A stretch of 64,000 nucleotides of DNA from Dehalococcoidales bacterium (GTDB lineage: Bacteria; Chloroflexota; Dehalococcoidia; Dehalococcoidales; RBG-16-60-22), in contig JBEKAC010000002.1 of NCBI GenBank assembly GCA_050018395.1, positions 84,429 to 148,428 on the forward strand, read 5' to 3'. Positions 29,827 to 48,981 of the stretch are shown piece by piece. Position 1 is the first letter of the stretch; each line of letters begins with the position of its first letter. The notes under the pieces were generated by a model. It was given only the letters and a program-made list of their open reading frames with translations. It did no database searches and was not told where the DNA came from. The translations under genes and the position numbers were made by a program.

Positions 29827-29832
29827 AGCAGA

Positions 29833-29876
29833 AAAATCCCCCGGATTCTTTTTTAGGGATTCGGGGGATTTTATTA
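29833..29876 (+). terminator. Intrinsic terminator after the cupin pair; also the left copy of a 19-bp direct repeat
   Basis: AAAATCCCCCG ... CGGGGGATTTT hairpin followed by a T-rich tail. Confidence 0.6.
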
Positions 29877-29901
29877 CAGATAACTAATATACTACCACAG
29901 C

Positions 29902-31416
29902 TTATGTTTCTATTTTTTCAATTTTCTTTTTTTGTGTTTCAATAAATGTTTTTACCACGTTTTGGTTATCGTTTTTCCACTGATTTATTATTTTGTTACA
30001 TCTATTACCCCAATATTTCTTTTCTTCATTAAACCATTGTTTCATTACCTCACGATTAGCTCCAAGAGTGGGTTTATGCATTAGGAAGACATTTTTGTTG
30101 TAACCACCGGGTGTTGAATCCCAGAAGGGGCTTTCTGGTGGTAATTCGTTTAAGTAATTTAAAAATACGTTTTCCGGACGAAGAGTACCTGGTAAAAATG
30201 AAACATTCTTTTGTCTCTTTAATTTTGCATCAGTAGATTTGTCTCCGTCGAGAACAATTAAACTATTCCTAAATTCTGGGAATTTTTCTTCTAACAAGCT
30301 TTTATATGAATCAGCACCATGATTGAATTTTTTAATTTCCAGTTTTGTACTAATATCTCTAGGAATCAAACCCTTAAGAAATATCCTGGCTTCCTCATCT
30401 TCTAAATATACATTGATTTTTCTCTTGATTTTCTTTGTACTAACTTCATGTCGTAAATCATCAATGATTCCATTCATTTGGTCTTTATCTTGTATTACCT
30501 CGACTGCACCAGTTGGATTATGTAGATAAATAATTTCAGAGGAATAATAATAATCCATTTTGTTAGGATCTAGCATATAGCCAATTATTTCTATTGAGTG
30601 GGTTGTGAAAATAATTTGTATATCATAATCTCTGGCTGCTTTTAAAAATACTTGCATTAACTGGCGTTGAGCGGCGGGGTAGAGCGTAGTATCTACTTCA
30701 TCAATTATCAGTAAACCACCAGGGTAGTTTTGTTGCATTTCTTCCTTAAGCTTCTTAAAAGATAATAATGCTAATATAATTTGTGCGAGATTGTCTTGCC
30801 CCGCAGAATTTCCGTATGCATCGTACTTTTCACACTCAGCATAAAAAATTTCTTTATTCCACGATTTAGTATGTTGAGGAACTACTTTGTCGTTAATAAC
30901 CAGTACTTGATTATGCCATTGTCTATAAAGCTCTTTATCTTCGTTTGTCAATTTGTTATCTTGTATAGTTCTGATTGACTTTTCACTTTCTTGAGCTAAA
31001 GGTATCAATCTTTTTAGGCTTAGATAAACTACAGGTAGTTTTACCTTTCCTTTGTTTCTTTGCCTAGTACCAACATCGATTCTAAACCGTTTATTCTTTC
31101 TATCATATCTAGACACAGCTTCCTTTTTACTTCCATCTTGAAATGTTAGTGAATAAGTATATTGTGATTGATAATCGTATTTAGGTGAAAACCGAAACAC
31201 TTCGGAAAATATGGTTTCAAAAGGTTTATTATCAATAGTTTTTACAATTTCTGAACTAATTCTAAATGAAAATATATGTCCTATTAAGCCAAGTAATGAA
31301 GATTTTCCAGTACCATTTACACCGGCAATAACTGTGATTTTTTCACCAATTTTCATGTCATTAAGATGGTTCAAATGTCTAAAACTAATGATTGATAATG
31401 ACTTAATTCGATTCAT
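29902..31416 (-). CDS. Stand-alone ABC/SMC-like ATPase with a C-terminal Toprim/DUF4435-like region (OLD- or PARIS-like)
   Basis: Walker A GVNGTGKSS, Walker B LLIIDEVDTTLYP and TTHS. The C-terminus has VYLEDEEARIF and LIVLDGDKS acidic motifs. Strongly AT-rich compared with its neighbours. The start could alternatively be 31452. Confidence 0.7.
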   Translation of the reverse strand: MNRIKSLSIISFRHLNHLNDMKIGEKITVIAGVNGTGKSSLLGLIGHIFSFRISSEIVKTIDNKPFETIFSEVFRFSPKYDYQSQYTYSLTFQDGSKKEAVSRYDRKNKRFRIDVGTRQRNKGKVKLPVVYLSLKRLIPLAQESEKSIRTIQDNKLTNEDKELYRQWHNQVLVINDKVVPQHTKSWNKEIFYAECEKYDAYGNSAGQDNLAQIILALLSFKKLKEEMQQNYPGGLLIIDEVDTTLYPAAQRQLMQVFLKAARDYDIQIIFTTHSIEIIGYMLDPNKMDYYYSSEIIYLHNPTGAVEVIQDKDQMNGIIDDLRHEVSTKKIKRKINVYLEDEEARIFLKGLIPRDISTKLEIKKFNHGADSYKSLLEEKFPEFRNSLIVLDGDKSTDAKLKRQKNVSFLPGTLRPENVFLNYLNELPPESPFWDSTPGGYNKNVFLMHKPTLGANREVMKQWFNEEKKYWGNRCNKIINQWKNDNQNVVKTFIETQKKKIEKIET

Positions 31417-31468
31417 GATGCCAATTATACACCTGAAATTGAATGTGCACAAGACATAATCTAACTAA

Positions 31469-31487
31469 AAAAATCCCCCGTATTCTT
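31469..31487. repeat. Right copy of the 19-bp direct repeat flanking the ATPase insert
   Basis: aaaaatcccccgtattctt versus aaaaatcccccggattctt at 29832-29850 (18 of 19 identical). Confidence 0.75.
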
Positions 31488-31608
31488 ATTAGGAATATGG
31501 TGACGAGGCTTCAAGTAATCCCCCGGACAAACGACTTTTACTTTTTGAGCCTTCGCCCGAATATGGTATAGTATTTCCAGTCAATTTCATCATATACATG
31601 GAGGTATT

Positions 31609-32487
31609 ATGTCCAAATTACTGGAAGGTCGGGTAGCGGTAGTCACCGGTTCCGGCAACGGCATCGGGCGGGCTGAGGCTATCGGGCTGGCGGCGCAGGG
31701 CGCCAGGGTAGTCGTCAACGATATCGGCACGTCGGTTGACGGCAAAGGGTCTTCGCAAAAACCGGCGGATGCGGTCGTCAGCGAGATAAAGAACTCCGGC
31801 GGCAGCGCCGTGGCCAATTACGACAGCGTGGCGACGGAAAAAGGGGCGGATGCCATCATCCAGGCCGCCATCGATAACTTCGGGCGCATCGACGTCTTAA
31901 TCAACAACGCCGGCGTGGTGTGCGCCTTGCGGGGCGTTGACGAAGTCCACTCCAGCGATTGGGAGAATGTCTTGAGAACTCACCTTTTCGGTACTTTTTA
32001 CTGCACGCGCCGCGCCGCCGCTTTTATGAAAAAACAGGGCTACGGCCGCATCGTCAATACTTCCTCGCACGTGGGGCTGGGGTGGAAAGGCAATACGGTT
32101 TACGGCGCCGCCAAGGAAGGCATCGTCGGTTTCACCCGCAGCGTGGCCCGTGATATGGCCGAATTCGGCGTCACCTGCAACGCCATCCGCCCATTGGCCG
32201 CCTGGAGAGGCTCCCCGGTAATCACGCCGGAAATGGCGCCGAACCGCCCGGAAGACATCGCCGCTTTGGTGGTCTACCTGGCCAGCGAGCAAGCCGACCA
32301 CATCAATGGGTGTATTTTTGAAGTCTGGCACGGGCACGTAGCGCTGTTTATCGAGCCGCCGCCGGTACTGGATACACTAAAAAAGGACGGCTCCTGGACG
32401 CCCGAGGAGCTGGCGAAGGCAATCGCGCAGACGCTGACCAAAGGACGGAGCCGGGAAAAGTTCGCGGAGACTTTCCACCTGGGGTAA
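31609..32487 (+). CDS. Short-chain dehydrogenase/reductase (SDR)
   Basis: VTGSGNGIGRA cofactor motif, NNAG and catalytic YGAAK. Confidence 0.9.
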   Translation: MSKLLEGRVAVVTGSGNGIGRAEAIGLAAQGARVVVNDIGTSVDGKGSSQKPADAVVSEIKNSGGSAVANYDSVATEKGADAIIQAAIDNFGRIDVLINNAGVVCALRGVDEVHSSDWENVLRTHLFGTFYCTRRAAAFMKKQGYGRIVNTSSHVGLGWKGNTVYGAAKEGIVGFTRSVARDMAEFGVTCNAIRPLAAWRGSPVITPEMAPNRPEDIAALVVYLASEQADHINGCIFEVWHGHVALFIEPPPVLDTLKKDGSWTPEELAKAIAQTLTKGRSREKFAETFHLG

Positions 32488-32497
32488 AGGGGCGGGG

Positions 32498-32683
32498 CGT
32501 ACGCACGCCTCTTTAATGCTGAAACAGGGAATCCACCCTAAAATAGTTCAGGAAAGACTTGGCCACTCAAGCATACAGATAACTCTTGATACTTATTCTC
32601 ACGTTGCTCCAGGCCTTCAAGAAGCTGCAGCTAAACGATTTGATGAAATTCTCAATATCACCGTCAGGATACAGTCTCAATAA
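32498..32683 (+). pseudogene. Remnant of a tyrosine recombinase gene (C-terminal roughly 60 codons only)
   Basis: Translates to R-THASLMLKQGIHPKIVQERLGHSSIQITLDTYSHVAPGLQEAAAKRFDEIL*. This is the HxxR / LGH...Y catalytic C-terminus. No N-terminal part is present, and it abuts the SDR stop. Confidence 0.7.
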
Positions 32684-32697
32684 TCTTATTTGTGATG

Positions 32698-33426
32698 TTA
32701 GACCATGTTGCCTAAAACGATAATACGGAGCCCTCGGGCCTCGTTACACCACTTCCAAGTTGAACGGTCTGAGGATTTGCCGGTAACGATAGGGACCTTA
32801 CACCTTGGCGGAATCTGGGTCTGTAGACAAGAAAAAAGCCCAACTACCCACCCAGCAAGAGGGTCGTTCAGCAATAATGGGTCGTCTGGGCCCGTCGGAA
32901 CGGCGTGCAGTTTATCCGAACGACCCCACGGGTCAACTTTACAACAATAGTGGCCGCTGCCTGTGAAGAGGCCTTCATCGAACACGAGAGTATTTCCGTC
33001 AAATCTTCTGTTATTGTCAAATCCTTCTCCATAGTATGCAATAACCCTGTAGAAGTTCTCGTCTCCCGGCACCCATAGCATACAGGCATTAGGAAGCACG
33101 ACATCTGGTATTATGGCTATTATAGGGTAGGTAGATCCGGTCATCTCCTTACCAGCAACGAGCATCACCTCACGCTCGCCGAGCAGTTTGGTTACCTCAC
33201 TGCCATAGTCCTTAGCTTGGTCTTGTATTCTTCTGATTACCCCCCTTACGTCCTCAATCCATTCGAACGTGGGTTGGTGATGCAAAATGCCCAAGCCGAT
33301 TACTATCTTTGCTACTCTCTCTTGAAGAGCATCAAGGTTTGAACCCACGTAAAGTGACTGCTGAGGGTCAAGTTGTTTTTGTTCCTGCGGAGCTTCAGGC
33401 TTTTTACGCTGAAACAACCATTTCAT
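32698..33426 (-). CDS. Hypothetical protein (242 aa)
   Basis: Long ORF with a GGAGG RBS (aggaggcaaagcATG). No family recognised. Lies between the integrase remnant and the island boundary. Confidence 0.5.
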   Translation of the reverse strand: MKWLFQRKKPEAPQEQKQLDPQQSLYVGSNLDALQERVAKIVIGLGILHHQPTFEWIEDVRGVIRRIQDQAKDYGSEVTKLLGEREVMLVAGKEMTGSTYPIIAIIPDVVLPNACMLWVPGDENFYRVIAYYGEGFDNNRRFDGNTLVFDEGLFTGSGHYCCKVDPWGRSDKLHAVPTGPDDPLLLNDPLAGWVVGLFSCLQTQIPPRCKVPIVTGKSSDRSTWKWCNEARGLRIIVLGNMV

Positions 33427-33552
33427 GCTTTGCCTCCTGAAGTCTTCATATTAGGTAAATTGATATTTTTTTACTCTCCCGAACTTAATTTTGTTTTATT
33501 TTACCACCTATGCCAAGCTTTTTGTTAAAATAACACGTTAGCAATCGGTTAG

Positions 33553-33590: not shown

Positions 33591-33596
33591 ATTCAT

Positions 33597-33636
33597 TGGT
33601 AGCGGGGGTTGGATTTGAACCAACGACCTCCGGGTT
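33597..33636. repeat. attR-like 40-bp partial copy of the tRNA-fMet 3' end
   Basis: tggtagcgggggttggatttgaaccaacgacctccgggtt is identical to 50664-50703. Confidence 0.9.
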
Positions 33637-33699
33637 GTTGGCTTAATTTCCCGTCGTCTGTTGTGCATCGTCCCATGTCTAATCGCATTCTTGTCTCCT

Positions 33700-33876
33700 T
33701 TATTCGACAATGACCGTCAATTTATTCTGACTGTTCCATTCAAGTCTGACAAACAAATATTCTTCACCTTCGATAATAACTGCCTCGCCCCGGTTGCACG
33801 GTACAAGAGCTGTATCCATATATCCTATCAAAACATCAGTGCAATTTAACCTGACCGGCACTATCTGCGTTGCCAT
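33700..33876 (-). CDS. Small hypothetical protein (58 aa)
   Basis: AGAGG RBS lies before the second Met (MATQIVPV). It overlaps the 3' end of the upstream ORF. Confidence 0.3.
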   Translation of the reverse strand: MATQIVPVRLNCTDVLIGYMDTALVPCNRGEAVIIEGEEYLFVRLEWNSQNKLTVIVE

Positions 33877-34129
33877 ACTCACCTCTTTCGTCCTCAGCCT
33901 TTACCTCGGCCCGCGCCTTTTTCGCGCGCTTTTTGGATTTTGGGGTCGCTGGGGATTGTCTGGTGGTCGTGTCGGCGAGCCGGTCTGTCTCTAGTTGGGC
34001 AAGGTATGCATTAGTAGCCGGGAGCAACAGGTCTGACCATTTGAGGTTTAACTTGAGCCTGCGCTCATTGATTTTGTCCCAGTCTGCCTTAGTAACCTGT
34101 GCCTGGAGCCATGTAATTATTTCTGCCAT
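33836..34129 (-). CDS. Hypothetical protein (97 aa) with a basic C-terminal tail
   Basis: Strong RBS (GGAGGTAAAACATG). Confidence 0.5.
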   Translation of the reverse strand: MAEIITWLQAQVTKADWDKINERRLKLNLKWSDLLLPATNAYLAQLETDRLADTTTRQSPATPKSKKRAKKARAEVKAEDERGEYGNADSAGQVKLH

Positions 34130-34357
34130 GTTTTACCTCCGGTTTACTTTTGAAGATGATTCTAGGATGTAGGCGGAGATATACACAACTCGAGGCTGGC
34201 GTGATTTTAGCGAAGGGTAATGGCCGGGAGTGTAAAGTTAGCGCGAGACTGTTACGTTCGACCAATATCATGGAGTTTGCTTCCACTATCTGGTTTTTTC
34301 ACAAATGTTACGGAGGTATGATATACAAGTTATGTGAAGATAAAAAATTGATAATGG

Positions 34358-34732
34358 TTATTCGTGAATAGAAGCTTTAAATTCCAAATAAGTGAGATAA
34401 TCGGCGATTTCTTCTATTTGGTCTTCTGGAAGGTCAGACATCTGTTGTTTAACCTGGTTAAGGTTATTTGCGAACGTCGCCGCAAAGTCCATCTCCGTCA
34501 TGCCCAGTATTTGAAGAAGATGGTTTGGTTTTTTGCCAAGATGCGAAGATAATTTTCTGATTACGCTGACAGTAGGTTTTCTATCTCCAGTTTCCAATTT
34601 ACTTATATAGCATGCTGATACGCCTGACAAACTAGCTAATTTTGCCAGAGAATATTTTATCGTTCCCTCACGACGTAACCGTCTGAGTTCTCGTCCAAAA
34701 TTATTTACTGGCTCCTTCATTACTAAGACCAC
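34358..34732 (-). CDS. XRE-family helix-turn-helix transcriptional regulator
   Basis: FGRELRRLRREGTIKYSLAKLASLSGVSACYISKLETGDRKPT is a classical Cro/C1 HTH. Confidence 0.85.
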   Translation of the reverse strand: MVLVMKEPVNNFGRELRRLRREGTIKYSLAKLASLSGVSACYISKLETGDRKPTVSVIRKLSSHLGKKPNHLLQILGMTEMDFAATFANNLNQVKQQMSDLPEDQIEEIADYLTYLEFKASIHE

Positions 34733-34756
34733 CTACCTAAACAAATGGTAAAATAA

Positions 34757-34864
34757 ATTATATACATAAAGTATAATAAATTCAATACTTTTCTTGACAT
34801 TTTTTTAATTTTATATTATAATTGCTTCGACAAAGCAATATTAATATTATACTTTATGTATATA
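34757..34864. promoter_or_regulatory. Divergent promoter region with two identical 20-bp operators in inverted orientation
   Basis: O1 is 34759-34778 (TATATACATAAAGTATAATA) and O2 is 34845-34864 (its exact reverse complement). Each contains the dyad TATAC-N5-GTATA. The plus-strand promoter is TTGACA (34794-99)-17-TATAAT (34817-22). The minus-strand promoter TTGAAT-17-TATAAT overlaps O1. Confidence 0.6.
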
Positions 34865-34951
34865 TTGAGTGTAATTGAGAAATGTTGACACCCAATATTT
34901 AAGCAGTTGTATAATGAAAACTCTCCTTCGAAAAAGTTAAGGAGGTGTAAA

Positions 34952-35407
34952 ATGGCAATGGAATCAATTATCGGTAGACCGATATCATTAGAGCTAGACC
35001 TATCTATTCTTTCAGATAGAGTAATTAATACCATTTCACGTAAAGGTAACTTTACGCGAGAGGACAGAGTAATTTTTCAAAAAGCAGTTGATTTCTTGGA
35101 GAATGTACAAAAAGGTGGAGATGCGGTGAATCGCCTTGAGCTAAACGCCGCAACAGGAGAGGAAATCGAATCATTCGGATTAGCAAATCAAACATATGAA
35201 GTATTAGGTAAAGGCCGACGACTAAAAGAACAATCCGAAAGGATTAAGGTATTAAGTAAATTAATTTCTGTAGCCAAACAATTGTCACAGGATACATCAA
35301 TACCTGCTGAAAAAGATGTTAAAGAATTGTATGAATTTTTCCGTTCAGCGAAGGAGATTACAAATCGTCTGACGGCAGGTGAGATTGACCAAGTCAAAAT
35401 CGGATAA
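34952..35407 (+). CDS. Hypothetical alpha-helical protein (151 aa), first gene of the XRE-controlled operon
   Basis: AAGGAGG RBS lies before ATG 34952 (MAMESIIGRP). No family recognised. Confidence 0.55.
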   Translation: MAMESIIGRPISLELDLSILSDRVINTISRKGNFTREDRVIFQKAVDFLENVQKGGDAVNRLELNAATGEEIESFGLANQTYEVLGKGRRLKEQSERIKVLSKLISVAKQLSQDTSIPAEKDVKELYEFFRSAKEITNRLTAGEIDQVKIG

Positions 35408-36770
35408 CATTAATCCAACGGCCAACCGTTTTATCAAAGAGACCTTACACAAGGCCTATTCCTTCGAAGCGCTCCTCACTAGAATACAAGCAAGAACTCC
35501 TCAACATGGTACTAAAAGCCTCCTCGATACTGCCAAAGCAGTTAGTCAAAATATTAGCGCATCTATAAATATTGAACTAAAAGCGAACAAAAACCTATCT
35601 GTGGAACAAATAATTAATTTATGCACAAATAGGAGTCTGCTATTAGATTCCATACATGAAGTTGTATTCAAAGTTATTCAAGCGACGGAATATACCCTTT
35701 ACCCAATGGGATTGATAGCAGCGACGGAAATTTTAATCCAAGATATAATTCCTACTTTTGCGTTAATATTAAATCCTTATGAAGGTGGAACGTATAAAAT
35801 CACAGCTTACCCAAAGTTATTAGATTCATACAGGAAATCATTAGGACCGTACCAAAAAAAGGAAACTAAAAAAGAAAAAAGGTTACCTGAATGGATTGTT
35901 GTGTTGTCTTACCCGGCTGTACAGTCAAACAATATTTTACTTCATACGATAATGGTTGGGCATGAAGTAATGCATCTTGAAGATTGGGTATCCAATATAT
36001 CTTCGACGCTTATAAAAAGTGGACAAGTAAAAATCATAAAAAAAGAAGTACGAAGAGAAGCAAAGAAAACGAAAGAGAAACAGGGAGGAGAGTTATTTAA
36101 AAATACAGGGCCAGTTCTACGAAGTTGGCTTCGTGAGATCATTGCAGATTTGATTGCAATAAGAAGGTTTGGACCTGCGTACTTTTTTTCCTTTTTAAGC
36201 TTGTCCTTTGCTTTAGGGGTTATGGACCAATTCAGCGAACGCCACCCATCTTCGCGAACGAGACTTAAGCTTATGTTCGACGAGCTCCGAAATATGGGCT
36301 ATATGAGACCACGTAAGATAAACCAACGAATCGTCGAAGAACTACAATTTTGGGAAAACTATATTAATTCCAAAAATGTTTACCCATCAGGAAAATATCT
36401 TATCGCCTTGAACAGCATTTTACGCGCCAGGGAACGAATAAGGGCTCGTGTTCGCGCGTTAAATAGGAGCAAAGAATATACGATACACAATTTTCTAAAT
36501 GAAGTCCCAAAATTACTAGAATATCTTAATAATGGGATACCTCCTTCTGAAGTATTTGATATTTCGACTCATTTATCAACACCAGCCACTTTGAGTGGTA
36601 TCTTAAATGCTGGTATGTGTCAATATTTGGATGGGTTGAAAGAAATACAGGGATTATTAAAGAATGAAGGCAACCTGGAAATGCTTGCCATGACGAAATT
36701 TAATGAATTACTTTCGAGGGCGATAGAAGTCAGTATTGTTTTGCAAGAATGGAAAAAAGGAACCAGCTAG
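35379..36770 (+). CDS. HExxH-motif protein (putative zinc metallopeptidase, distantly ImmA/IrrE-like)
   Basis: IMVGHEVMHLEDW (HExxH), followed about 55 residues later by REIIADLIAIRRFG (E..AD..A, a possible third ligand). The GTG/TTG start is uncertain and overlaps the upstream gene end. Confidence 0.55.
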   Translation: MRLTKSKSDNINPTANRFIKETLHKAYSFEALLTRIQARTPQHGTKSLLDTAKAVSQNISASINIELKANKNLSVEQIINLCTNRSLLLDSIHEVVFKVIQATEYTLYPMGLIAATEILIQDIIPTFALILNPYEGGTYKITAYPKLLDSYRKSLGPYQKKETKKEKRLPEWIVVLSYPAVQSNNILLHTIMVGHEVMHLEDWVSNISSTLIKSGQVKIIKKEVRREAKKTKEKQGGELFKNTGPVLRSWLREIIADLIAIRRFGPAYFFSFLSLSFALGVMDQFSERHPSSRTRLKLMFDELRNMGYMRPRKINQRIVEELQFWENYINSKNVYPSGKYLIALNSILRARERIRARVRALNRSKEYTIHNFLNEVPKLLEYLNNGIPPSEVFDISTHLSTPATLSGILNAGMCQYLDGLKEIQGLLKNEGNLEMLAMTKFNELLSRAIEVSIVLQEWKKGTS

Positions 36771-36773
36771 TTT

Positions 36774-37445
36774 GTGAATGAAATGAACAAAGAAAACGGC
36801 AGTCAGCAACAAGCGATATTAGGAAGTGAAGAACTAAAAAAGCGTTTATTTCATAAGGATATCAAAGAGAGACTCGTCATCAGTCCACTAATTAGTGATG
36901 ATTTTGCAGATGGGACAATCGATATCAGGCTTGGTACGAAATATATCATGACGCAGCGAACCCAAATACCATCAATTGACCCAATCGAATCGGAACAGGA
37001 AGACATCTATAAATTCTTACAACGTGTTGACCTACCAATAGGGTCTAACATCACGATACACCCCCGGATGCTAATATTAGCTGCTACCCTTGAATATATT
37101 TGTTTACCTTTAAACTTATGTGCATCCGTGGTCACTCGCTCGACTTATGGAAGACTAGGTTTATTATCTGCAACCGCCGTTCATGTTCACCCAGGATTTC
37201 GAGGCTGCCTTACACTCGAGCTTGTGAATTTCGGTGATACGGCAATATTGTTATATCCCGGAATTCGTATTGCACAACTAATTATTTATAACGCAGGTGA
37301 TTGTGAAGCCCCTGAAGCACCAAAATATCACATGGTAACTGAACCTGAATTCCCCAAATTATGGAAAGAAAGAGACCGTAAGGTCTTAAGATACTTAAAA
37401 AAGAGAGCTGAAAATCTTAAGGTTTCCTCAACAACATTTTTTTAG
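36774..37445 (+). CDS. dCTP deaminase / dUTPase-fold (DCD-like) protein
   Basis: TIDIRLGTKY, TRSTYGRLGLL and VHPGFRGCLTLELVNFGDTAILLYPGIRIAQLIIY parallel the Dcd signature blocks, including the TLE glutamate. Confidence 0.7.
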   Translation: MNEMNKENGSQQQAILGSEELKKRLFHKDIKERLVISPLISDDFADGTIDIRLGTKYIMTQRTQIPSIDPIESEQEDIYKFLQRVDLPIGSNITIHPRMLILAATLEYICLPLNLCASVVTRSTYGRLGLLSATAVHVHPGFRGCLTLELVNFGDTAILLYPGIRIAQLIIYNAGDCEAPEAPKYHMVTEPEFPKLWKERDRKVLRYLKKRAENLKVSSTTFF

Positions 37446-37584
37446 TCAACTGGGCAATCCAAGAACAAGAAAAAAACGTGATAATGAAATACCTTTAAAT
37501 TTCAATCCAACAACGTGGGGGTTGTTAGTACAAAGTTGTGATAGGTACCGTCACAGCGGTCTAATAGATTGAAATCCTTAGGTT

Positions 37585-38469
37585 TTATTCTACAGGGTTT
37601 GTCTTTTCGTAGGCCATTTTGAAATACTTTGTAAGTAACGCTTCATACTTATTTATATCGGATTTAATGAGTCTGATTTTGTATCTTCCTGACCTATTAT
37701 TATAATCAAGTAATTCTATTCCAGACTCGTCTAGCTCATTTTGTATTTCATCGGACTTTTCTAACTTAATTTCAACGTTCAATCTATTTTTCTTTGGTCT
37801 GAATATCACAAAATTGTCAGCTTGGTTATTCCTTGCAAGCCCAATGTAAAATTTAGTGTACTTGAGTGCCAATGAACTATCGAGCTTTTTTATTATTTCG
37901 AGTAACTCGTCTGCCATTTTTACAGTTGAAGGCGTCCCTTTTATCGTTTCCCAATATGCGCGGTCAACATCCTGTACCGGCCCTTCCTCTTCCTCGAGGC
38001 CATACTTCAACTCATCTATAACTTTAGTAAATACTAGCGTTACATTGTCTTCAAATTTCATTGCCCGCATTTGTAGTGCAATCAGTGGAATAGAACCATT
38101 GAAAAGATTGATTACGTTTAAAAAACGGCTAGTAATATCTTCGGCAACTATTACTGCATGATGTTCGTATTGAGGATATCTTTTGTGCTCAATATCCCAG
38201 TATTCTATAGTCCTAATAATATGAGATTCGTCCGTAGGGCCTAACTGTACTTCCACCTCGTATCTATCAGATTGTTCAGCATCCTGAAAAAGTAAATCTA
38301 GTCTCCCAGCATTAGGCTGTGGACGCTCCCTGTCACGTAAAACCAGGTCGCCTAATCCTAATATTGCTGGGTCTTCGGCTATTCTATCTTGTACCCATTT
38401 TTCACTAAAATTTGGATTGTTTTTTAAAAAGAGTGTTTCAGGTTTTATGTACTTCATTGTTTCCTCCAT
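37585..38469 (-). CDS. PD-(D/E)xK-like nuclease-fold protein with a DUF5655-like C-terminus, third gene of the MTase-helicase operon
   Basis: GRLDLLFQD...YEVEVQLG...DESHIIRTIEYW resembles NucS/DUF91-type nuclease cores. 43 nt downstream of the helicase gene. Confidence 0.45.
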   Translation of the reverse strand: MEETMKYIKPETLFLKNNPNFSEKWVQDRIAEDPAILGLGDLVLRDRERPQPNAGRLDLLFQDAEQSDRYEVEVQLGPTDESHIIRTIEYWDIEHKRYPQYEHHAVIVAEDITSRFLNVINLFNGSIPLIALQMRAMKFEDNVTLVFTKVIDELKYGLEEEEGPVQDVDRAYWETIKGTPSTVKMADELLEIIKKLDSSLALKYTKFYIGLARNNQADNFVIFRPKKNRLNVEIKLEKSDEIQNELDESGIELLDYNNRSGRYKIRLIKSDINKYEALLTKYFKMAYEKTNPVE

Positions 38470-38512
38470 CTACGGGAATTCTAGATAATTATTGTTTTAC
38501 CTGTAACCGTCT

Positions 38513-41500
38513 TTATTTCCTTGGTAATACGACTTGATAACAAACAACACCAAGGTCTTCTTTTGTAATTGGTCTCGGAACTGATGTAGGTGTTACAGGC
38601 GCTAACCCAAACGACTTGATTATTTGCAGCATTTCCTGGGCACACTCGTTAATACCTAGTTTTTCTTGCTCCTGTTTTTTCCTTAATTGAGAGAGTGCAC
38701 GACGTACTAATGCATCACGCCCTACTCCCAAAGCTAAGTCCGCATTATCAAAATCCTTACCTATCGGCGCATCGGGATGGCGAAGTATCGTTAAAGCCCA
38801 TCGTTGGCTTGCTGGTAGACGCTCCTCTCTTGCCGCTGGGTTGGTCAAACGATTGTGAAATTCGCAAATATCAGCCGCCACTTTATTGAACAAGGCCTCA
38901 AGGTTTACGGTGTCTGGGATTGGAGAACCTGGAGCAGAAACAGGGTCAATCAGGCGGAGCATGGTTAAATCCTCGCGGATAATGTTGCCATCTGTCGAGA
39001 TATATCTCCAGTATCTTTCACCTTGTTTCGTACGACAGGCAAAGAATACACCGGGTACCTGTACTTTATTCTTCACCTCAGAGGTTTGAATAAAAGCAGC
39101 GCCAATACCCCAAGGTAATGATTTTAACCGCTCTAGTTCACCCTCGGCTAGAACGCGTAATAAGAGTGCTCGGAATTCCTCACCACGAAAGGAACCCGAT
39201 TCAAAGCCATCGTCCGAATCGAGTAAGGTAGCATCCCCAGCTGATAATCTCCCCGCATATTGAGTTAAATCGGCATATATTTTTGACTCTGTAGGAACAC
39301 TGGCCAACACTGGTGTCTCCATGCCGACCGCGGCATTGGCAGCAGCTATCTTCGCTTTAATGCGAGCTTCAAGCCCTAAAATCAACTCCAGGTCTCCCTG
39401 TTTTGGTAGTAAGGTGTAGAGGAAGGCTACATCATGAGGGCTCTTCAAGCGTATAACGCGGCCATTTCGTTGAACGACCCGCTGTGGGTTCCAAGGCATG
39501 TCATAGGAGATAACTGCTTGAGCTTCCTGGAGGTTTTGACCTTCAGATAACACGTCAGTACTAATGAGCAGGTCAACCTCTCCATCTCTAGGAACAAACT
39601 TCGGGTCTCCCGTAACTGAATGAGGACAGAAGCGCTCTAACATATATTCCCGAGTATCGGTATCTGTTTCGTTGCCTATGACCACTGTCCATTTACGCCC
39701 ACATGTCACACTGGGTTTTTTCTGAATAGCTTCCTGAATATATGTGGCAGTATCTTGATATGTTGTGAATACGGCCACCTTTTTAGCCTTGGTGGTCTTA
39801 AGCAGAATCCACAATTCTTGAAGCTTAGGGTCATCTTGTTTGCCCAGGGCTTCCAGGTTTTTATCTATTTCAGAAAGCGTGTTTAAGTCTTTTATTACAT
39901 CACGTTCAAATTCGGGTATAAAGCTACTAGGGAGAAGAATTCCTTCTGTATCTTCCAGGGCTTCTGCTGCAAGGTCGCCTAGCGGCAATCCACCTTGAAC
40001 CTGTGACGCGAGTTCCCTGATTGTTGATAAAGGTGGTATTGCTCCCTGGCTTCGCAGCACTTCTAGAACTACAGAGTTAGCTGCGCACATCATTTTTATA
40101 GTCTGATGCGCGCTATACCATGAGGATTCAAAACGTTTTAAGAGGCCAGACCGTATTAGTCCTGCTAAGGCTTCTTCGTCTGCCGCTTCGCCTGCCTTAT
40201 CCTTCCGATAAGCAGTCAGTCTGTATCGGGCCATGGTTAGAGAGTCAATACACTTCACAATTTCACGTACAATATTGGGATAAGCCTTATCCAGGTCATA
40301 CCGCTTTTCAATTAGCTGCGGTTTAGGGAATTTGACAGGTGTACCATCCGGGAAATGGTCATTCGGGTAATGTTTCTCTAAGAAGCTGCGATCTCTGCGT
40401 ACCGTTACCGAGTCTATTAGTGGGAATAGGCGTGCCTCAGAGATTGCTTCGGGGTCATTGGCACCTACTTCTAGAAAATATTTTCTCAGGCTTTTAATAC
40501 GCAATGGTGGATTGGCAAAGGCTCCGTCATGTCGACCAAAGAGAAGGAAAAGGCTATGCAAGTCCCACAAGGTGTTGTTTACGGGAGTCGCGGTCAGCAG
40601 CACGAGGTCTTTGGGAACGCCTCCCATAAGTTTGTCCATCGCCTCATACCAGGTAGTATCCGGATTACGGAAGGCATGGGCTTCGTCCACCACAATGAGC
40701 CGGTAAGCATCTTTATCAATGTGAAGTACCCGCTTGGTTCCCTCTCTATCGGTAATGAGTTGGCGGTCTTTTGCTAGTTCCTGATATGACACCACCTGAC
40801 CTGGGAGATTTGCGAGGTCGAGTCGCCGCTCCCATGTCCGGTCGCGTAGTTGGGCCGGTGAGATAATCAGCGTATGCACCCCTTTTTCTTTGGCATACTC
40901 CTGGATAAAAGCAATACCTATTTCTGTTTTGCCAGTGCCTACACCATCGGCATAGAGTACGCCGCGGTACTTTTCCAGAATACGGCGTGCCCGTTCGTAG
41001 CCATCACGCTGGAAGGCGGCTAGTGTACTCCCTGGGCGCGGTGTTTCAGGGGTCACTTCTTCAGGAAGCTCATCGCCATATAGTTCAAGGAGGGCACGGA
41101 GGAAAACTGTTTGCGGGTCAGTTTCAGGCAGCGGAGGCAACAACAGGTCAAGTAGCTCTGCTTTGAATTCTATGGCTTCGACCCACAGACCGTTGTACCA
41201 GTCTAGGGCCATATGCACGACATTAGGCTGGTAGTGAACAAGTCCTAATTCAAGATTGGAAGTCATTCCCGCGGATGTAAGGTTGGCTGAAGAGACCAGT
41301 GCCGTTCCCTGCCCCTTAAGTTGACCTTGGTCATTCAATTCTCCAAGTAGATAGGCTTTGCCGTGCAAGAAGCGCTGGGTATATCGCTTTACCTGGGTGG
41401 ACTCTAACCTCAATAAGGTTGCCACCCGTTCCAGCATCGCCCGGCGTAAAGGTGGAAAACTTTGGAAATCACGTTCCTTGCGAAGTACCTTTAAAGATTC

Positions 41501-41701
41501 CTCAAACTGGTCGCGTACCTGCGGTTCAGACTCTAGTTCTCGCTCCCCGTACATCAAGCCAGGCGGCGGTGCTGCCCCTAGGAGCAACCGTAGTGGGCGT
41601 GGAGACGTCTCAAGTAACCTTGCTAGAGTGTCCAACCCTCCCAACTCCTTGTGAGAGCCGTATTCATTATTATCTACCAGTTCATAAGGGCCACTAGGCA
41701 T
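38513..41701 (-). CDS. Fusion protein: N-terminal PLD (HKD) nuclease domain plus SNF2/DEAH-family helicase
   Basis: HKD motif LHGKAYLLGE...LVSSANLTSAG. Helicase motif I is DGVGTGKTE and motif II is VVDEAHAFRN. The C-terminal helicase lobe has TDVLSEGQNLQ...QRNGRVIR. The start overlaps the MTase stop (TAATG). Confidence 0.85.
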   Translation of the reverse strand: MPSGPYELVDNNEYGSHKELGGLDTLARLLETSPRPLRLLLGAAPPPGLMYGERELESEPQVRDQFEESLKVLRKERDFQSFPPLRRAMLERVATLLRLESTQVKRYTQRFLHGKAYLLGELNDQGQLKGQGTALVSSANLTSAGMTSNLELGLVHYQPNVVHMALDWYNGLWVEAIEFKAELLDLLLPPLPETDPQTVFLRALLELYGDELPEEVTPETPRPGSTLAAFQRDGYERARRILEKYRGVLYADGVGTGKTEIGIAFIQEYAKEKGVHTLIISPAQLRDRTWERRLDLANLPGQVVSYQELAKDRQLITDREGTKRVLHIDKDAYRLIVVDEAHAFRNPDTTWYEAMDKLMGGVPKDLVLLTATPVNNTLWDLHSLFLLFGRHDGAFANPPLRIKSLRKYFLEVGANDPEAISEARLFPLIDSVTVRRDRSFLEKHYPNDHFPDGTPVKFPKPQLIEKRYDLDKAYPNIVREIVKCIDSLTMARYRLTAYRKDKAGEAADEEALAGLIRSGLLKRFESSWYSAHQTIKMMCAANSVVLEVLRSQGAIPPLSTIRELASQVQGGLPLGDLAAEALEDTEGILLPSSFIPEFERDVIKDLNTLSEIDKNLEALGKQDDPKLQELWILLKTTKAKKVAVFTTYQDTATYIQEAIQKKPSVTCGRKWTVVIGNETDTDTREYMLERFCPHSVTGDPKFVPRDGEVDLLISTDVLSEGQNLQEAQAVISYDMPWNPQRVVQRNGRVIRLKSPHDVAFLYTLLPKQGDLELILGLEARIKAKIAAANAAVGMETPVLASVPTESKIYADLTQYAGRLSAGDATLLDSDDGFESGSFRGEEFRALLLRVLAEGELERLKSLPWGIGAAFIQTSEVKNKVQVPGVFFACRTKQGERYWRYISTDGNIIREDLTMLRLIDPVSAPGSPIPDTVNLEALFNKVAADICEFHNRLTNPAAREERLPASQRWALTILRHPDAPIGKDFDNADLALGVGRDALVRRALSQLRKKQEQEKLGINECAQEMLQIIKSFGLAPVTPTSVPRPITKEDLGVVCYQVVLPRK

Positions 41702-44700
41702 TAGCGTGCCTCCTTGCGGAACTTCTCTAATACCCGTTCCCGGTAGGCGGTCGCCACCGCCCGTTCCGTAAAATCACTAAAAATGGTATATAAGTCTGTT
41801 TCATCCAGGCCATAAGCGCGGGCAACGAGTGCATCTATCTCCGCCCGGACTGAATCACGGTTTTCTTTTAATGGCCCGATTTCTACACCTGATGCTTTAG
41901 CAAACTCAGTAAAGCGTTCATCAACGCAAGAAAGCCTAGCCGCCAGCTTCCCGATGCGTTCCCATGGTGTATTTTCAACAGTTGGGAAGCAGAGCATATC
42001 AAGGATGAAGAAGTTAACATTTGTCTCAACGATGCGCCGTGCTTGCCAATCGAAAGGCAGAGAATTCATTAAACCAAGAACAAACATCTGAGCGACTATG
42101 GTACCAGATGAGAATACCAGATATGGAGCCTTGTTTGTGAGTCCAGTCTCCGGTGGTATAAGGCAAGCAATAACTGTCCGTGCATTGGTACGGTTGGTAA
42201 CATCACGAAAAGCAATGCGAGCATTATGCAGGGGCAGAGTCTTCTTATCTTTGAGCACAATCGAGGAGAAGTACCTACGAAACTGGCTTCTTGTTGACTG
42301 GCGCTTCTGCTGTAAATATATTTCCAGTTCACTTAGCCTTGCATACCCTGCTGGTTCCTCCCCGTGGGGGGCATACTGGTCAAAGGAACGTCCTTTCCAG
42401 ACAGGAAGACCTTGTTTGTGGCTGAATAACTTCTTATTATGTGTTTCATGCAGTTCGGCAATAGGGATAACTTTCCAGATATTTGGATAACCGTAGTCAA
42501 ATCGTGGTCCTTTTCTGAGCTTGGCGAATACGTTGGCTGCTGCCTTTGAAGGCAGAAGAGGGACTTCCCATGAGGGCTCTTTTATAGGGTCGTCCGCAGG
42601 ACTTGGCGTCCACTCTCTTAAAGTCGTCAGGGGCACCCCTACTCCAGGGCTTTGAGAAGCTTTTAAAAACTCTTCCAGACTAGTTGAGGGGCCAGTCTGG
42701 TGCATTTCAGCATCTGCTGCTTTTACCCGTTCGGAAGAAACTAGCGAAATAGTGTACCTTGGCTCCATATTGAAAGCCCATCTTCCTGAGTTCAATAAAA
42801 AGTCGATTCTCTTTACGGTACAGTCCTTGAATAGCCACCTCCTGAAGCCCCTTGCACCATCTACTAGGAAGGCACTTCGTGGTAAAACGACTCCTAGATA
42901 CCCCTTTTCACGGGTTAGGTGACCATAACGTTCACAAAAAAGTTTATAAAGGTCTGGGTCGCCAGCGCCTTGTAGAATATACCCCCCAATAGGCCCAAAG
43001 AATTGCCGCTGGGAAGCCAAATCGCTGCTACGCTGCTCAAATTCCCTTTTAATTTCGGGGTAAAGCCTATCGAGTTCTTGAATGCGAGCTTGACGGTTAG
43101 CCTCATGAGTAATTCCTCTCAGCCCTGGGTTATAAAGTGCATAGAACCCCAGCTTTTCGATTGTCAATTCATTCCACGGGGGATTACCAATAACCACGTC
43201 AAAGCCGGGATTATCCCTCATAAATACATTGGGGAATACCAATGGCCAATGGAGGAAACGGCGGCGTTCTGCTTCTTGGTTGGCGGCTTTTACCAAACGT
43301 GTCGTTCCACCATTAAAGTCACCATCAATTATCTTCTGTATATCGCCAGTCTCAAGTGGATGACGGGCGCCGATAACTCCCAGAGGTTCCGCGCACCATA
43401 AGTTAAGACAGCGGGCAATACCTTCGGTGGACTGTTGAAGTTCGCGCTCTTTCTCCCTGGATATCGTCACTTCTTCCGGAGTGCGGTCGCCCACTTCAGA
43501 CAGCGCCTTGGCAATATCCTTGGCTCGTTGGAAAGCCAAGGTAATTGGGGAGCCCGGATTATTAGCACCAAAGAGTGGATTTGAGGCGTACAATGCATTC
43601 ATGTCTGCGATACCAATAAGGGCATCTCCAACCTTTAGATTGCTGCCCAGGTAGGAAAGAGATAGTCCGGGCACAAAGCTGGTGAGCCAGAGAGATATAT
43701 TAGCCACCTCAACTGCCATCGGTGAGAGGTCAACACCATAGATACAACGCTTTAAAATCAGGCGGCGTAAAAGCTGGCTATCTTCATAAATACGACCGGT
43801 GCCACCCTCCGAATCTCCTTTGAGAGAATCCAGTAGTTGCCTTATTGCCGGTAACGGGTGTTCAGCCAGAAAGAGTACAATGCGGTCGGCCATTACGTCC
43901 AAAGCCGCTGTCAGGAAGTGAGCGCTACCCATGGCTGGGTCAACAACATTGAAATCGAGCATCCTATAAGCAGCCTTGATTGGGTCAGTACTGGCAATTT
44001 CAGCTATTTGTTTAAGATGTTCATCCAATGCTGGCTCCAGAGAATACTTGATAAGGTGACGCACAAATTCATGACGAGTGTAATATACGCCCGCTGCTTT
44101 ACGACCGCCGCTCTCTGTCTGATAAAATAATTGATACTGCTGGACTTCTATTGCCTCACCGGCGTGTGCAGGTAAGTAACGGTCAGTACGTGTGTCATAT
44201 TTTAAGTTTTCCATTGCGCTTGTCAACTTTAATCCAAGTAATCCTTCATAGATAGCGCCCAAATGACCTATCTCCAGCCCAGCATAGTCCAAACCAGGAG
44301 AGTCCGGTTCATCGGTGGCGTATGCAATGACCGCCAGTGCTGGAGCGACAAAATTATCAGTAATTTGGGCACGTTCTAGAAGTTCGCTACCAGGGAAACC
44401 ACTAGCAGCAAATAGGCTGCCGTTATAAGCAGATACTCCTGTGGCTTTGTTACCTGTTCTAACCATACGAACTAGAGTAGTTAATCTATCCCAAAATTGA
44501 GTAGAGCGCCTATCCAAGCGCGCTAAGTCACGGCGAGCCGATGCTGCTAATTCCGTTGCTCCATAAGGCTTGTAAGCAGCTGAATCAACCGGTAGGAACG
44601 CAGCGGCTTCTGCGTAGAGGATAAATATAAAACGGAATACAAACGTTAGCGCAGCTGACTCAATATCTCGTAATAACTCTGGTTTGCTTAGGTCGGCACC

Positions 44701-45690: not shown

Positions 45691-45851
45691 CCTATCCCCC
45701 GGAACAACTTATGTATTATGTCATTTCTTGCCCATATCATAATACTCATAGGCGCAGTGGTCAAATAATCGGTAATAAATCGTCATAATACCCATAGTGT
45801 AGTTACGTTGAAATAGTATCGAATCCGAAGAAGACAGATAGCTTCAGCTTT

Positions 45852-45889
45852 GCGGGACAATTTTCATTCCAAACGTGAAAATTGTCCGC
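45852..45889. promoter_or_regulatory. 13-bp inverted repeat upstream of the HNH gene (operator or stem-loop)
   Basis: GCGGGACAATTTTC-N11-GAAAATTGTCCGC. Confidence 0.35.
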
Positions 45890-45927
45890 AGATTTACACT
45901 CAAGAAAAGAGGGCGTAAGATTAAAGC

Positions 45928-46837: not shown

Positions 46838-46860
46838 AGCAGCATCGGAGGCGGGCAACA

Positions 46861-47150
46861 CCGAGTAATCCGAGTAACGATTTCCAAACTAAGGATGAAA
46901 AGGGTGCTGAAGCCGCTGAAAGTTTCAAAGCTAAATATTAAGACGGCTGAAGGCGGCGAACGAGGCGAACAAAAACAAAGCTATGAGCAATTAACACGAT
47001 TAATAAAAATAAGCATGGACGTCGAACAGCGTCGAACACGTCGAACAATTCCAAAGCTAAAAAAGATGGGCGGCTAAAGGTGGCCAATAAAAACAAAGCT
47101 AACGGGCTAAAAGAGGCTACATCGGCTACAAATTCTAAAGCTAACGCCCG
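46861..47150. repeat. Iteron-like field of short direct repeats (candidate replication origin)
   Basis: CCGAGTAA x2, GGCGAAC x2, GTCGAACA x3 and CAAAGCTAA-like x5 (46926, 46976, 47052, 47093, 47136). Confidence 0.5.
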
Positions 47151-48836: not shown

Positions 48837-48981
48837 TAGCTATTACTCCTTAATAATCAACTTTATTACCCTTTGAATGGGTCTTCAAGAATCATAATAT
48901 TATATAACATTAGCCACTTTATATTGTGGTATAATACCCCTACGACTTTAAAGGTCAAGTACACGACTAAAGGAGGGGAAC

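Follow-up and report, generated by a model that had tools for sequence, protein, structure and literature searches.

A conserved cassette encoding an M48-like gluzincin and a Dcd/dUTPase-fold protein, a candidate nucleotide-depletion conflict system

A stretch of 64,000 nucleotides from a Dehalococcoidales genome (here termed the window) contains a compact operon of three genes, which we call A, B and C, preceded by a divergently transcribed repressor gene. The third gene encodes a protein related to dCTP deaminase, and the second a protein with an HExxH motif. Why should a deaminase of this kind be encoded next to a putative zinc peptidase, and does the combination constitute a system in its own right? 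The depletion of dCTP by deamination is a strategy of defence that has been shown experimentally (Tal et al., bioRxiv 10.1101/2021.04.26.441389). From the sequences analyzed here, the most likely role of the cassette is that of a new system of phage defence, or a toxin system, directed against the dCTP pool.

The cassette, its control region and its island

The three genes occupy 2.5 kb of the forward strand. All four open reading frames reported in the first-pass annotation of this DNA are present at the coordinates it gave, and their positions uphold the operon architecture that it proposed. The mechanical reading frame of gene A runs from 34907 to 35407; the real start is the ATG at 34952, located six nucleotides after the sequence AAGGAGG, so that the gene (34952-35407) encodes 151 aa, in agreement with the length given earlier. 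Gene B (463 aa) extends from 35379 to 36770 and gene C (223 aa) from 36774 to 37445. The boundaries overlap or abut as had been described, with an overlap of 29 nt between A and B, and 3 nt from the stop of B to the start of C.

The module is clearly AT-rich, having a GC content of 36.8% compared with 44% for the surrounding island and 54-55% for the flanks. The tRNA-fMet island in which it had been placed is real; it is 17 kb in length, with exact 41-nt repeats at both ends and a tyrosine integrase inside. The left border is marked by an attL-type direct repeat (33596-33636) that duplicates the tRNA-Met gene exactly over its 3' half. The attR copy, found by repeat search (50663-50703, reverse strand), lies in the 3' half of that gene (CAT, initiator-like; 50664-50738, reverse strand), which was located using ARAGORN. 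Three G-C pairs adjoin the anticodon loop of this tRNA, and C1 is mismatched with U72; these are features of initiator tRNAs. The integrase gene (49556-50599, reverse strand) matches Phage_integrase at 2.8e-37. The island also encodes a type IIG restriction-modification (RM) enzyme and an HKD-Snf2 helicase. We asked whether a DUF5655 gene (37585-38469) might be a fourth member of the cassette, and rejected this as the gene is missing from all the other loci.

The repressor gene (34358-34732, reverse strand) encodes a helix-turn-helix protein of the XRE family that matches HTH_3 and HTH_31 at E 1e-9. Alignment with the orthologue of a related locus (L007) indicates ATG 34720 as the likely start, giving a protein of 120 aa. 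It matches the PADLOC capH model (PDLC04142) at 6.4e-10, with residues 10-111 lying on positions 5-96 of the 103 of the model, and its conserved C-terminal segment LPxxxxEEIxxYLxYLEFK is common to the XRE proteins of loci L007 and L001. The control region between the repressor gene and gene A (34733-34951), which includes AAGGAGG as the ribosome binding site of A, is just 23% GC. A promoter predicted on the forward strand agrees with the sigma-70 consensus at 12 of 12 positions (TTGACA at 34794, TATAAT at 34817-34822), and there are three promoter-like sites on the reverse strand. The two arms of a perfect 20-nt inverted repeat (34759-34778 and 34845-34864) lie on either side of the predicted consensus promoter, and a 15-nt palindrome (34813-34847) spans its -10 box. 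Comparable operator-like inverted repeats are present in the XRE-A intergenic regions of three other loci (L001, L022 and L033).

Orthologues of the XRE gene adjoin the system in 10 examined loci, and are missing or replaced in others. The earlier description of the operon as XRE-gated is therefore apt for this sub-branch but not for the system as a whole; the XRE protein is a frequent accessory that lies outside the core.

The proteins encoded by the cassette

The Dcd fold assigned earlier to C, with an intact catalytic glutamate, is borne out by matches to Pfam DCD (PF22769; 2.2e-30, 106 bits against a cut-off of 27) and TIGR02274 (111.6 bits, cut-off 92.8), and by alignment with E. coli Dcd. 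The best match in the PDB is M. tuberculosis Dcd (2qlp) at 5e-20. C contains the motifs TRSTYGRLGL (residues 121-130) and HPGFRGCLTLELVN (139-152), and the residues S123, R127, T134, A135 and E149 correspond to S111, R115, T123, A124 and E138 of the E. coli enzyme. The catalytic Ser, Arg and Glu are kept in the C proteins of the system except for that of locus L011, where the catalytic Glu is replaced by Gln. Since C scores above the TIGR02274 cut-off, annotation based on NCBIfam would label it an ordinary dCTP deaminase.

While C shares fold, family (by HMM) and these active-site residues with the housekeeping Dcd and Dcd:dut enzymes (E. coli 1xs1, M. tuberculosis 2qlp), it differs from them in other respects. 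H139 replaces Asp128 of E. coli Dcd, the residue that binds the deoxyribose 3'-OH; among the 120 closest homologues this position is His in 108 and Asn in 6. C has an N-terminal extension, together with a longer and different C-terminal tail, KYHMVTEPEFPKLW, from which the canonical lid KYxxQxG is missing, and which holds a clade-specific motif KY..TEPEFPK.W. Unlike the housekeeping enzymes C is mobile, and its gene invariably follows B and A or is fused to them. C is predicted to be the effector, and would deaminate dCTP to dUTP. Given the replacement of Asp128 by His in most members, and the altered lid motif, the substrate of C could be other than dCTP.

What kind of protein is B? It contains the motifs GHEVMHLED (residues 194-202) and EIIAD (253-257), and the key residues fall into the series H195-E196-x-x-H199, E253-x-x-A256-D257 and H289-P290-x4-R295. 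In an alignment of 53 diverse members H195, E196, H199, E253, D257 and R295 do not vary and P290 hardly does, and H289 is invariant in an alignment of 13 sequences. An AlphaFold2 model (pLDDT 94.4) has the topology of a zincin, in which a sheet of three strands is combined with one helix bearing HExxH and another bearing the Glu. On the N-terminal side of this core lies a region of three helices, and on the C-terminal side a helical domain. Comparison with a profile of E. coli M48 peptidases using hhalign gave a probability of 90.9% (E 1.1e-6) over the ExxAD-HPxxxxR segment, in which ExxAD is matched to E189/A192/D193 and HPxxxxR to H232/P233/R238, all of them invariant within the E. coli set. 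Peptidase_M48 was the sole recurrent Pfam match, a weak one found for 9 of the 53 members (best E 0.0015); none of the 53 reaches the gathering threshold of PF01435, and B of the window gave no match. We therefore assign B as a soluble, M48-like gluzincin, a distant relative of the M48 peptidases that by Pfam's rule is not a member, and from its motifs we infer that it would have protease activity. The resemblance to peptidases of the ImmA/IrrE type that had been suggested for B does not hold. Peptidase_M78 (PF06114) matched 0 of the 53 members at E<=1, B of the window has no PADLOC match, and the protein is M48-like instead.

The series HExxH, ExxAD and HPxxxxR is common to B and to M48 peptidases such as HtpX, LoiP, BepA, YcaL and Ste24. 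Unlike those peptidases B has large, family-specific helical domains at both termini that lack a structural neighbour, was recovered exclusively in these operons, adjoining or fused to cytoplasmic enzyme domains, and is dedicated to one partner enzyme. A Foldseek search of the PDB and BFVD with the whole-chain model found no neighbour at E<=1e-3; the zincin core makes up too little of the chain. A match of B to LpoB (E 0.1) was treated as chance.

The B family comprises 1,627 representative clusters (50% identity clusters) at E<=1e-3, nearly all from uncultured organisms. Close relatives are rare, as the patterns that define them gave one match in 185,579 species genomes. A word-index search for homologues with the 53-sequence alignment returned only 7 proteins, distant members being beyond the reach of the index, and a DNA pattern for W..E..AD..A....GPAY found nothing in metagenome contigs. 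No relatives of B were found by tblastn in phage and plasmid collections or in a scan of IMG/VR, which removes one kind of supporting context.

Gene A lies directly upstream of B in nearly all loci, as detected with a local HMM, and is the fastest-evolving of the three. The mean pairwise identity is 32% for A, for which the family alignment contains 20 loci, compared with 37% for B and 48% for C. By these alignments A, B and C co-diverge as one unit. We propose that A may be a specificity or inhibitor component. Two matches of A were treated as chance. An apparent relationship to the N-terminal part of DnaB (NCBIfam, E 3.6e-5) scored 22 bits against a cut-off of 834 and was not seen for A of locus L045, and a match of the A profile to Cmr2 (PDB, E 0.02) covered one helix pair only.

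Linkage of the genes and the setting of related loci

The trio is conserved, and is not a one-off. There are 24 distinct loci whose sequence extends far enough beyond B, and in each of these C either comes next or is fused to B, over a range of B identities from 20 to 67%. Such fusions make up 9 of the 10 longest members of the family, and six further fused loci were found. In every locus examined B and C are thus found together or fused, and the lack of co-occurrence beyond this genome that the first-pass annotation named as a refutation is not seen. Models of Pfam, PADLOC and PHROG give no match to A, and these and NCBIfam give none to the B family. Equally, the proposal that the trio belongs to no named system stands, as none of the models of PADLOC 2.0.0, NCBIfam 20.0, Pfam and PHROGs represents A or B in the branches tested, and a search of the literature found no description of an A-B-C system. 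A paper on Burkholderia glumae that names both M48 and dCTP deaminase is unrelated, and concerns separate genes.

The flanking genes vary in every locus examined. One copy has an SNF2 module on one side and a CBASS operon on the other (L042), and another is preceded by a type I RM system and followed by ThiF and XRE/M78 genes (L045). Others adjoin an IS element and a DNA methylase (L001), lie 6 kb from an MmeI-type enzyme (L040), or adjoin capsid genes (L006). Three are lone insertions among housekeeping genes (L022, L033 and L043), and some loci lie among core genes (gyrB/gyrA, dnaA/fmt). In about a third of the longer contexts (L022, L033, L043 and L013) no defence genes were found near the system. 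In the L011 variant the Glu to Gln change in C is accompanied by a fused P-loop kinase-like AAA_18 domain. A separate M78 protein accompanies the XRE protein in the L011/L012 variant and, independently, in L045.

How does the cassette compare with known systems of defence? The defensive dCTP deaminase AvcD combines a zinc-dependent cytosine deaminase domain and an N-terminal kinase domain in a single protein (Tal et al., bioRxiv 10.1101/2021.04.26.441389), and is restrained by an sRNA antitoxin (AvcID, PMC10511110). The precedent of dCTP-deaminase defence invoked in the first-pass annotation holds for the predicted activity but not for the family, since the zinc cytidine-deaminase fold of AvcD is unrelated to the Dcd/dUTPase fold. 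The predicted outcome for C resembles that of AvcD, i.e., deamination of deoxycytidine nucleotides and depletion of dCTP in infection; moreover both occur in defence islands, and the kinase-like domain of the L011 variant is a further likeness. In contrast to AvcD, C is a metal-independent Dcd of the dUTPase fold, and its partners are a zincin and a small protein. It has the Dcd fold only and matches no PADLOC model, and is thus not of the AvcD type.

A possible mechanism and its alternatives

On balance we favor the view that A, B and C form a self-contained mobile conflict system, whether anti-phage, abortive-infection or toxin-antitoxin-like, in which C would be a dCTP-deaminating effector controlled by B and A. 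This view is supported by the linkage and fusion of B and C, the co-divergence of the genes, the catalytic residues of C and B, and the mobile and defence contexts, as well as by the precedent of dCTP depletion and the capH-like XRE gene beside a promoter within an inverted repeat. In such a system C would act as a trimeric deaminase of the dUTPase fold, converting dCTP into dUTP and so starving DNA replication of dCTP, and flooding with dUTP may add to the effect. B, an M48-like zinc protease of the cytoplasm, would form a complex with C, with which it makes up a single polypeptide in many relatives. It may regulate the activity of C through proteolysis, the target being either A, a small and fast-evolving protein that could be an inhibitor or a phage sensor, or the conserved C-terminal extension of C. 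In the present sub-branch the CapH-like XRE protein would bind the inverted repeats over the consensus promoter, keeping expression of the operon low.

We can offer a more specific version of this as a tentative possibility. C would be latent until activated by B; A would sense a phage component, B would cut A or the extension of C, and the C trimer would then make dUTP, such that phage DNA synthesis is halted and the DNA becomes loaded with uracil. If B activates C, the effector would be locked to a dedicated protease, as in trypsin-like protease-nuclease pairs (PMC12799240) and gasdermin-protease systems (PMC10312443). In those the protease is of the serine or cysteine type and the effector a nuclease or a pore-forming protein, whereas here a zincin would be combined with a predicted nucleotide deaminase.

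Other explanations should be weighed against these. The cassette might be an addiction module stabilizing its island or region, with no dedicated anti-phage role, in which C is the toxin, A a labile antitoxin and B the protease that degrades A. The compact operon of overlapping genes, the autoregulator-like XRE protein with its operator palindromes, the solitary insertions amid housekeeping genes and the rapid evolution of A would all suit such a module. Yet classical type II systems are served by the host Lon or Clp rather than by a dedicated protease of 460 aa, and the B-C fusions and the RM and CBASS neighborhoods are typical of defence systems, so that we regard this as unlikely. Addiction and defence are in any case compatible with each other. 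We think it rather more doubtful that C acts on CTP, a phage-specific modified dCTP or another substrate that is not dCTP, or serves as a nucleotide-binding sensor, with B and A belonging to another pathway of signal or protein processing. The His or Asn at the position of Asp128, the PEFPK.W motif in place of the usual lid, and the Gln and kinase-like domain of the L011 variant point in that direction. Against it, the site for deamination of cytosine keeps its Ser, Arg, Thr-Ala and catalytic Glu, and C scores above the threshold set for equivalogs of dCTP deaminase.

The role of B might alternatively be confined to that of an anti-repressor protease, cleaving the XRE protein under stress by the logic of ImmA/ImmR or CapP/CapH, with A and C as regulated cargo. 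The likeness is evident in the divergent XRE gene, its product matching capH over its full length with a C-terminal extension, which lies beside a defence-type operon encoding an HExxH protein; it accompanies the system in 10 loci, and a Pfam search found no M78 gene in the window module that could supply a separate CapP-like partner. However, CapP and ImmA are small M78 peptidases, while B is M48-like and three times larger. Furthermore, B remains linked to C, in many cases as a fusion, where the XRE gene is absent or a different HTH protein is present, and where a separate M78 protein does occur it joins the XRE protein (L011/L012 and L045). This makes the explanation very unlikely. Least probable of all is a role in ordinary nucleotide metabolism, where C would be a Dcd isozyme providing dUMP for thymidylate synthesis, B a protease for its assembly or quality control, and A a chaperone. 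It is true that C scores high enough for TIGR02274, that sources name it dCTP deaminase, and that some loci lie amid core genes. But the module is foreign, AT-rich DNA within an integrase island, it has different neighbors in every locus and carries its own repressor, close relatives of B are rare, and a housekeeping Dcd needs no partner.

Should the more specific version outlined above prove correct, the dUTPase superfamily would have its first immune effector in C, and B would be the first M48-type protease acting in prokaryotic immunity. If the conflict system that we favor is borne out, immunity by nucleotide depletion would have a second, structurally unrelated enzyme family, and a zincin-controlled effector switch would be introduced. 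Two undescribed protein families would acquire a function, that of B numbering some 1,600 clusters at 50% identity. It would also follow that a widespread clade of 'dCTP deaminases' is misnamed, a systematic error of annotation under the TIGR02274 equivalog that would skew the metabolic reconstructions of the genomes and MAGs that carry it.

Organization and genomic setting of the module

The ORF listing of the window confirmed the four genes of the module. A gene encoding an XRE repressor-type helix-turn-helix protein (34358-34732, minus strand) is divergent from an operon of three plus-strand genes, here called A, B and C. Gene A occupies a mechanical ORF at 34907-35407, and its start is most likely the ATG at 34952, six bases 3′ of the sequence AAGGAGG; this gives a small protein of 151 aa, the length stated in the first-pass annotation. 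B (35379-36770) encodes a 463-aa HExxH protein, and C (36774-37445) a 223-aa protein of the dCTP deaminase (Dcd) fold. For XRE, alignment with its L007 orthologue indicates ATG 34720 as the most likely start. The overlapping or abutting gene boundaries described earlier are borne out by an A/B overlap of 29 nt and a gap of 3 nt between the stop of B and the start of C. All the motifs that had been quoted were located, GHEVMHLED at residues 194-202 and EIIAD at 253-257 of B, and TRSTYGRLGL at 121-130 and HPGFRGCLTLELVN at 139-152 of C. The module is thus confirmed as it was first observed.

The 219 bp spacer between XRE and A has a GC content of 23%. A site on its plus strand agrees with the sigma-70 consensus at 12/12 positions (TTGACA at 34794, TATAAT at 34817-34822), and there are three promoter-like sites on the minus strand. 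The number of such sites does not exceed the shuffle expectation; the perfect 12/12 site and the long repeats are all that stand out. The plus-strand promoter lies between the arms of a perfect 20-nt inverted repeat (34759-34778 / 34845-34864), and its -10 box is spanned by a 15-nt palindrome. The XRE-A spacers of three relative loci (L001, L022 and L033) have long or repeated palindromes of their own, and together these elements fit the action of XRE as a putative repressor that would bind the divergent promoters. The protein matches the PADLOC regulator model capH over nearly its full length (6.4e-10), and the same C-terminal segment is found in the XRE proteins adjoining the system at 10 of the loci examined. 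At other loci the position is either empty or filled by a protein of the HTH_17 type or a different small protein. XRE, which had been included in the system, therefore accompanies some branches as an accessory and does not belong to the core.

The module was described as AT-rich, and has 36.8% GC versus 54-55% in the flanks. It is housed in a 17-kb integrative island (33596-50703) whose borders carry a 41-nt direct repeat, exact in both copies and matching the 3′ half of the tRNA-Met gene (33596-33636 and 50663-50703). A tyrosine integrase gene (49556-50599) adjoins the tRNA-Met gene, which has the features of an initiator tRNA. The accompanying genes encode a DUF5655 protein (37585-38469), an HKD-Snf2 helicase (38513-41701; PADLOC C3a139, 1e-47), a type IIG restriction-methylase (41701-45690; RM-methylase, 2e-127), whose gene shares 1 nt with that of the helicase, and a protein of the HNH_3 type (45928-46422). 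These features show that the designation as a tRNA-fMet island was correct, and the island is of the defence type.

Two further observations were made in the neighboring DNA. A 25-nt direct repeat (AACGAGGCGAACAAAAACAAAGCTA and variants) occurs three times at 46959-47101, with spacings of 76 and 42 nt, in a stretch of the island to which no gene is assigned. Older foreign DNA lies to the left of the island border (29832-33430). It contains a gene for an AAA_21/AbiEii-type ATPase (29902-31452, 33% GC) with matches to PADLOC AriA and PtuA-like models and 22-nt direct repeats on both sides (29832-29853 and 31469-31490), a tyrosine integrase reduced to a 55-aa C-terminal piece (32516-32683), and a 242-aa ORF without assignment (32698-33426). 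An earlier element may have inserted at the same site and left this region as its remnant.

The three protein families

Protein C is a member of the Dcd/dUTPase fold, in agreement with the signature noted at first. It matches Pfam DCD at 2e-30 and the NCBIfam dCTP deaminase equivalog with 111.6 bits (cut-off 92.8), PHROGs labels it dCTP deaminase, and its closest solved relatives are the Dcd enzymes of M. tuberculosis and E. coli. On alignment, S123, R127, T134-A135 and E149 correspond to S111, R115, T123-A124 and E138 of E. coli Dcd, the residues of the deaminase site in this family; the catalytic Glu is thus kept. Asp128 of E. coli Dcd is replaced by His139. In the superfamily this motif Asp touches the deoxyribose 3′-OH, and dUTPases use it as the catalytic base when they hydrolyse pyrophosphate. 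His139 is not peculiar to a single sequence: this position is His in 108 and Asn in 6 of the 120 closest homologues. The C-terminal arm has KY..TEPEFPK.W followed by about 25 residues instead of KYxxQxG, a pattern conserved among near relatives and recognizable in distant ones. We infer that C would be a monofunctional deaminase with a specialized lid, converting its predicted substrate to dUTP rather than dUMP. The clade comprising C and its homologues P0161-P0279 carries the source name 'dCTP deaminase' and passes the TIGR02274 cut-off. Genes of this mobile system are probably being counted as housekeeping dcd in annotations and metabolic models.

Protein B of the window matched nothing in Pfam, NCBIfam, PADLOC or PHROGs, and a word-indexed search gave only six relatives. 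An exhaustive profile search gave 1,627 representative clusters at E<=1e-3, 620 of them at E<=1e-10; the ten clusters sampled were all metagenomic and unnamed, with one to three members each. In an alignment of 53 sequences (mean column identity 25%), P179, H195, E196, H199, E253, D257, G265 and R295 are invariant. The AlphaFold model calculated from this alignment is confident (pLDDT 94.4, pTM 0.92). It begins with three long N-terminal helices; a three-stranded sheet follows at 127-179, then the HExxH helix at 189-205, a long helix at 236-264 bearing E253 and D257, and a helical C-terminal domain. The sheet, the HExxH helix and the helix with E253 and D257 are arranged as in zincins, with the zincin core at residues 110-305. 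Searched as a whole, the chain gave no significant structural neighbor in the PDB or BFVD.

To which zincins is B related? The first-pass annotation saw in HExxH and a downstream E..AD..A block a resemblance to the ImmA/IrrE-type (M78) peptidases, B being about three times larger. The series HExxH ... ExxAD ... HPxxxxR belongs to M48 peptidases such as HtpX and Ste24. When the 53 members were scanned against Pfam, Peptidase_M48 was the sole family matched by more than one of them (9/53, best E 0.0015, all below threshold), and Peptidase_M78 was not among the families listed. Profile-profile comparison with E. coli LoiP, YcaL, BepA and HtpX gave 90.9% probability (E 1.1e-6), the ExxAD and HPxxxxR of B lining up with invariant M48 columns. 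B is therefore a distant, soluble M48-like gluzincin and not an ImmA/IrrE relative.

In one member of the B family, P0138 (696 aa), HExxH and ExxAD are both missing, and the helical C-terminal portion of B is preceded by an HNH endonuclease domain at the N-terminus. This suggests that the helical B domain can be combined with other effectors.

Protein A could not be placed in any Pfam, NCBIfam, PADLOC or PHROGs family, and its profile found nothing convincing in the PDB. Its relatives from 20 loci align over their full length, and a local HMM places A directly upstream of B at nearly every locus. A is nonetheless a genuine family.

The trio at other loci

Relatives of B or C were looked up exactly, genomes and metagenomes were scanned for patterns, and the loci gathered in these ways were searched with local HMMs. 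In 24 distinct loci there is room downstream of B, and in every one of them C comes next or is joined to B in a fusion, so that the two genes co-occur elsewhere; where unfused, their boundaries usually overlap. A C-terminal DCD domain is present in nine of the ten longest B-family representatives, and six further loci have a B-C fusion. As a reverse check we took two abundant homologues of C, picked only for long contigs: P0215, whose NCBI genome measures 2.85 Mb, and P0218, which has entries in 236 blocks of the collection. Upstream of each are an A-like (E 4e-9 and 4e-7, respectively) and a B-like protein (1e-40 and 4e-39). When 55 pairs of loci were compared, identity averaged 48% in C, 37% in B and 32% in A, and A was less conserved than B in 47 of the pairs. 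A, B and C diverge together, and the trio is a unit.

The surroundings of these loci are mixed, as is typical when small modules of the defence or toxin kind are mobile. L042 has an SNF2 module on one side and a CBASS operon (SAVED and CD-NTase) on the other, and L045 lies after a type I RM system and before ThiF-like and XRE/M78 genes. L001 adjoins an IS element and a DNA methylase, and L006 adjoins capsid genes. An MmeI-type enzyme is encoded 6 kb away from L040, and a Dam-type methylase about 5 kb upstream of L032. Single insertions are found among core genes (dnaA, fmt, gyrA) in L022 and L033, and adjoining gyrB and gyrA in L043.

Some loci carry additional genes. Directly downstream of the system in L045 (8660-12167) are the genes of a 484-aa ThiF/E1-like protein and its partner of 215 aa, and then the XRE and M78 pair; the type I RM operon upstream includes a YgjP-like metallohydrolase, and the contig family is widely sampled. 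The region has the look of a densely packed defence island that includes more genes without assignment. In a divergent sub-branch (L010 2864-3556, L037 4017-4712) a conserved fourth gene directly after C encodes a product of about 230 aa without a Pfam match, the start of which, M..TVAFLDILGFKD, presumably resembles that of class III nucleotidyl cyclases. In L011 (1911-4818) and L012, an XRE gene is upstream on the same strand, and C is followed by a single 551-aa protein that is both Peptidase_M78 and cytidylyltransferase-like. In this variant the catalytic Glu of C is replaced by Gln, and C bears a C-terminal AAA_18 kinase-like domain, a fusion recalling the kinase fusion architecture of AvcD.

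Known systems and a possible mechanism

No named system matched the trio: A and B from five different branches have no match among the models of PADLOC 2.0.0 or NCBIfam 20.0. A full-text search of the openly accessible literature found no description of a Dcd-fold deaminase paired with a zincin. DefensePredictor has a dUTPase domain among its unvalidated predicted defence domains; its passages on this contain no description of the trio. The established defensive dCTP deaminase AvcD comprises a zinc-dependent cytosine deaminase domain and a kinase domain (Tal et al., bioRxiv 10.1101/2021.04.26.441389). Its deaminase fold is unrelated to that of C. The precedent invoked earlier therefore holds for the activity, which is predicted for C, but not for the family.

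On balance we lean toward A-B-C being a mobile conflict system in which C is the effector and B its dedicated regulator. C is the sole component with a predicted small-molecule chemistry and is the most conserved, the catalytic residues of B are invariant, and B and C are often one polypeptide. A evolves fastest, as expected of a partner to a variable phage protein or a neutralized effector. Two versions would fit this reading, with activation of C dependent on the protease, which we consider less likely than not. A B-C complex might be inhibited by A, which B would cleave in response to a trigger. Alternatively C might be latent, becoming active when B trims its conserved C-terminal extension.

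The initial interpretation, of a protease- or sensor-controlled nucleotide-depleting effector silenced by XRE, is thus partly supported, once B is assigned to M48 and not M78, AvcD is taken as a parallel in activity and not in family, and XRE is regarded as accessory. As an undescribed system A-B-C is a well-founded candidate. In kind it would be a variant of nucleotide-depletion immunity in which the effector has a fold new to this role and two of the protein families are undescribed.
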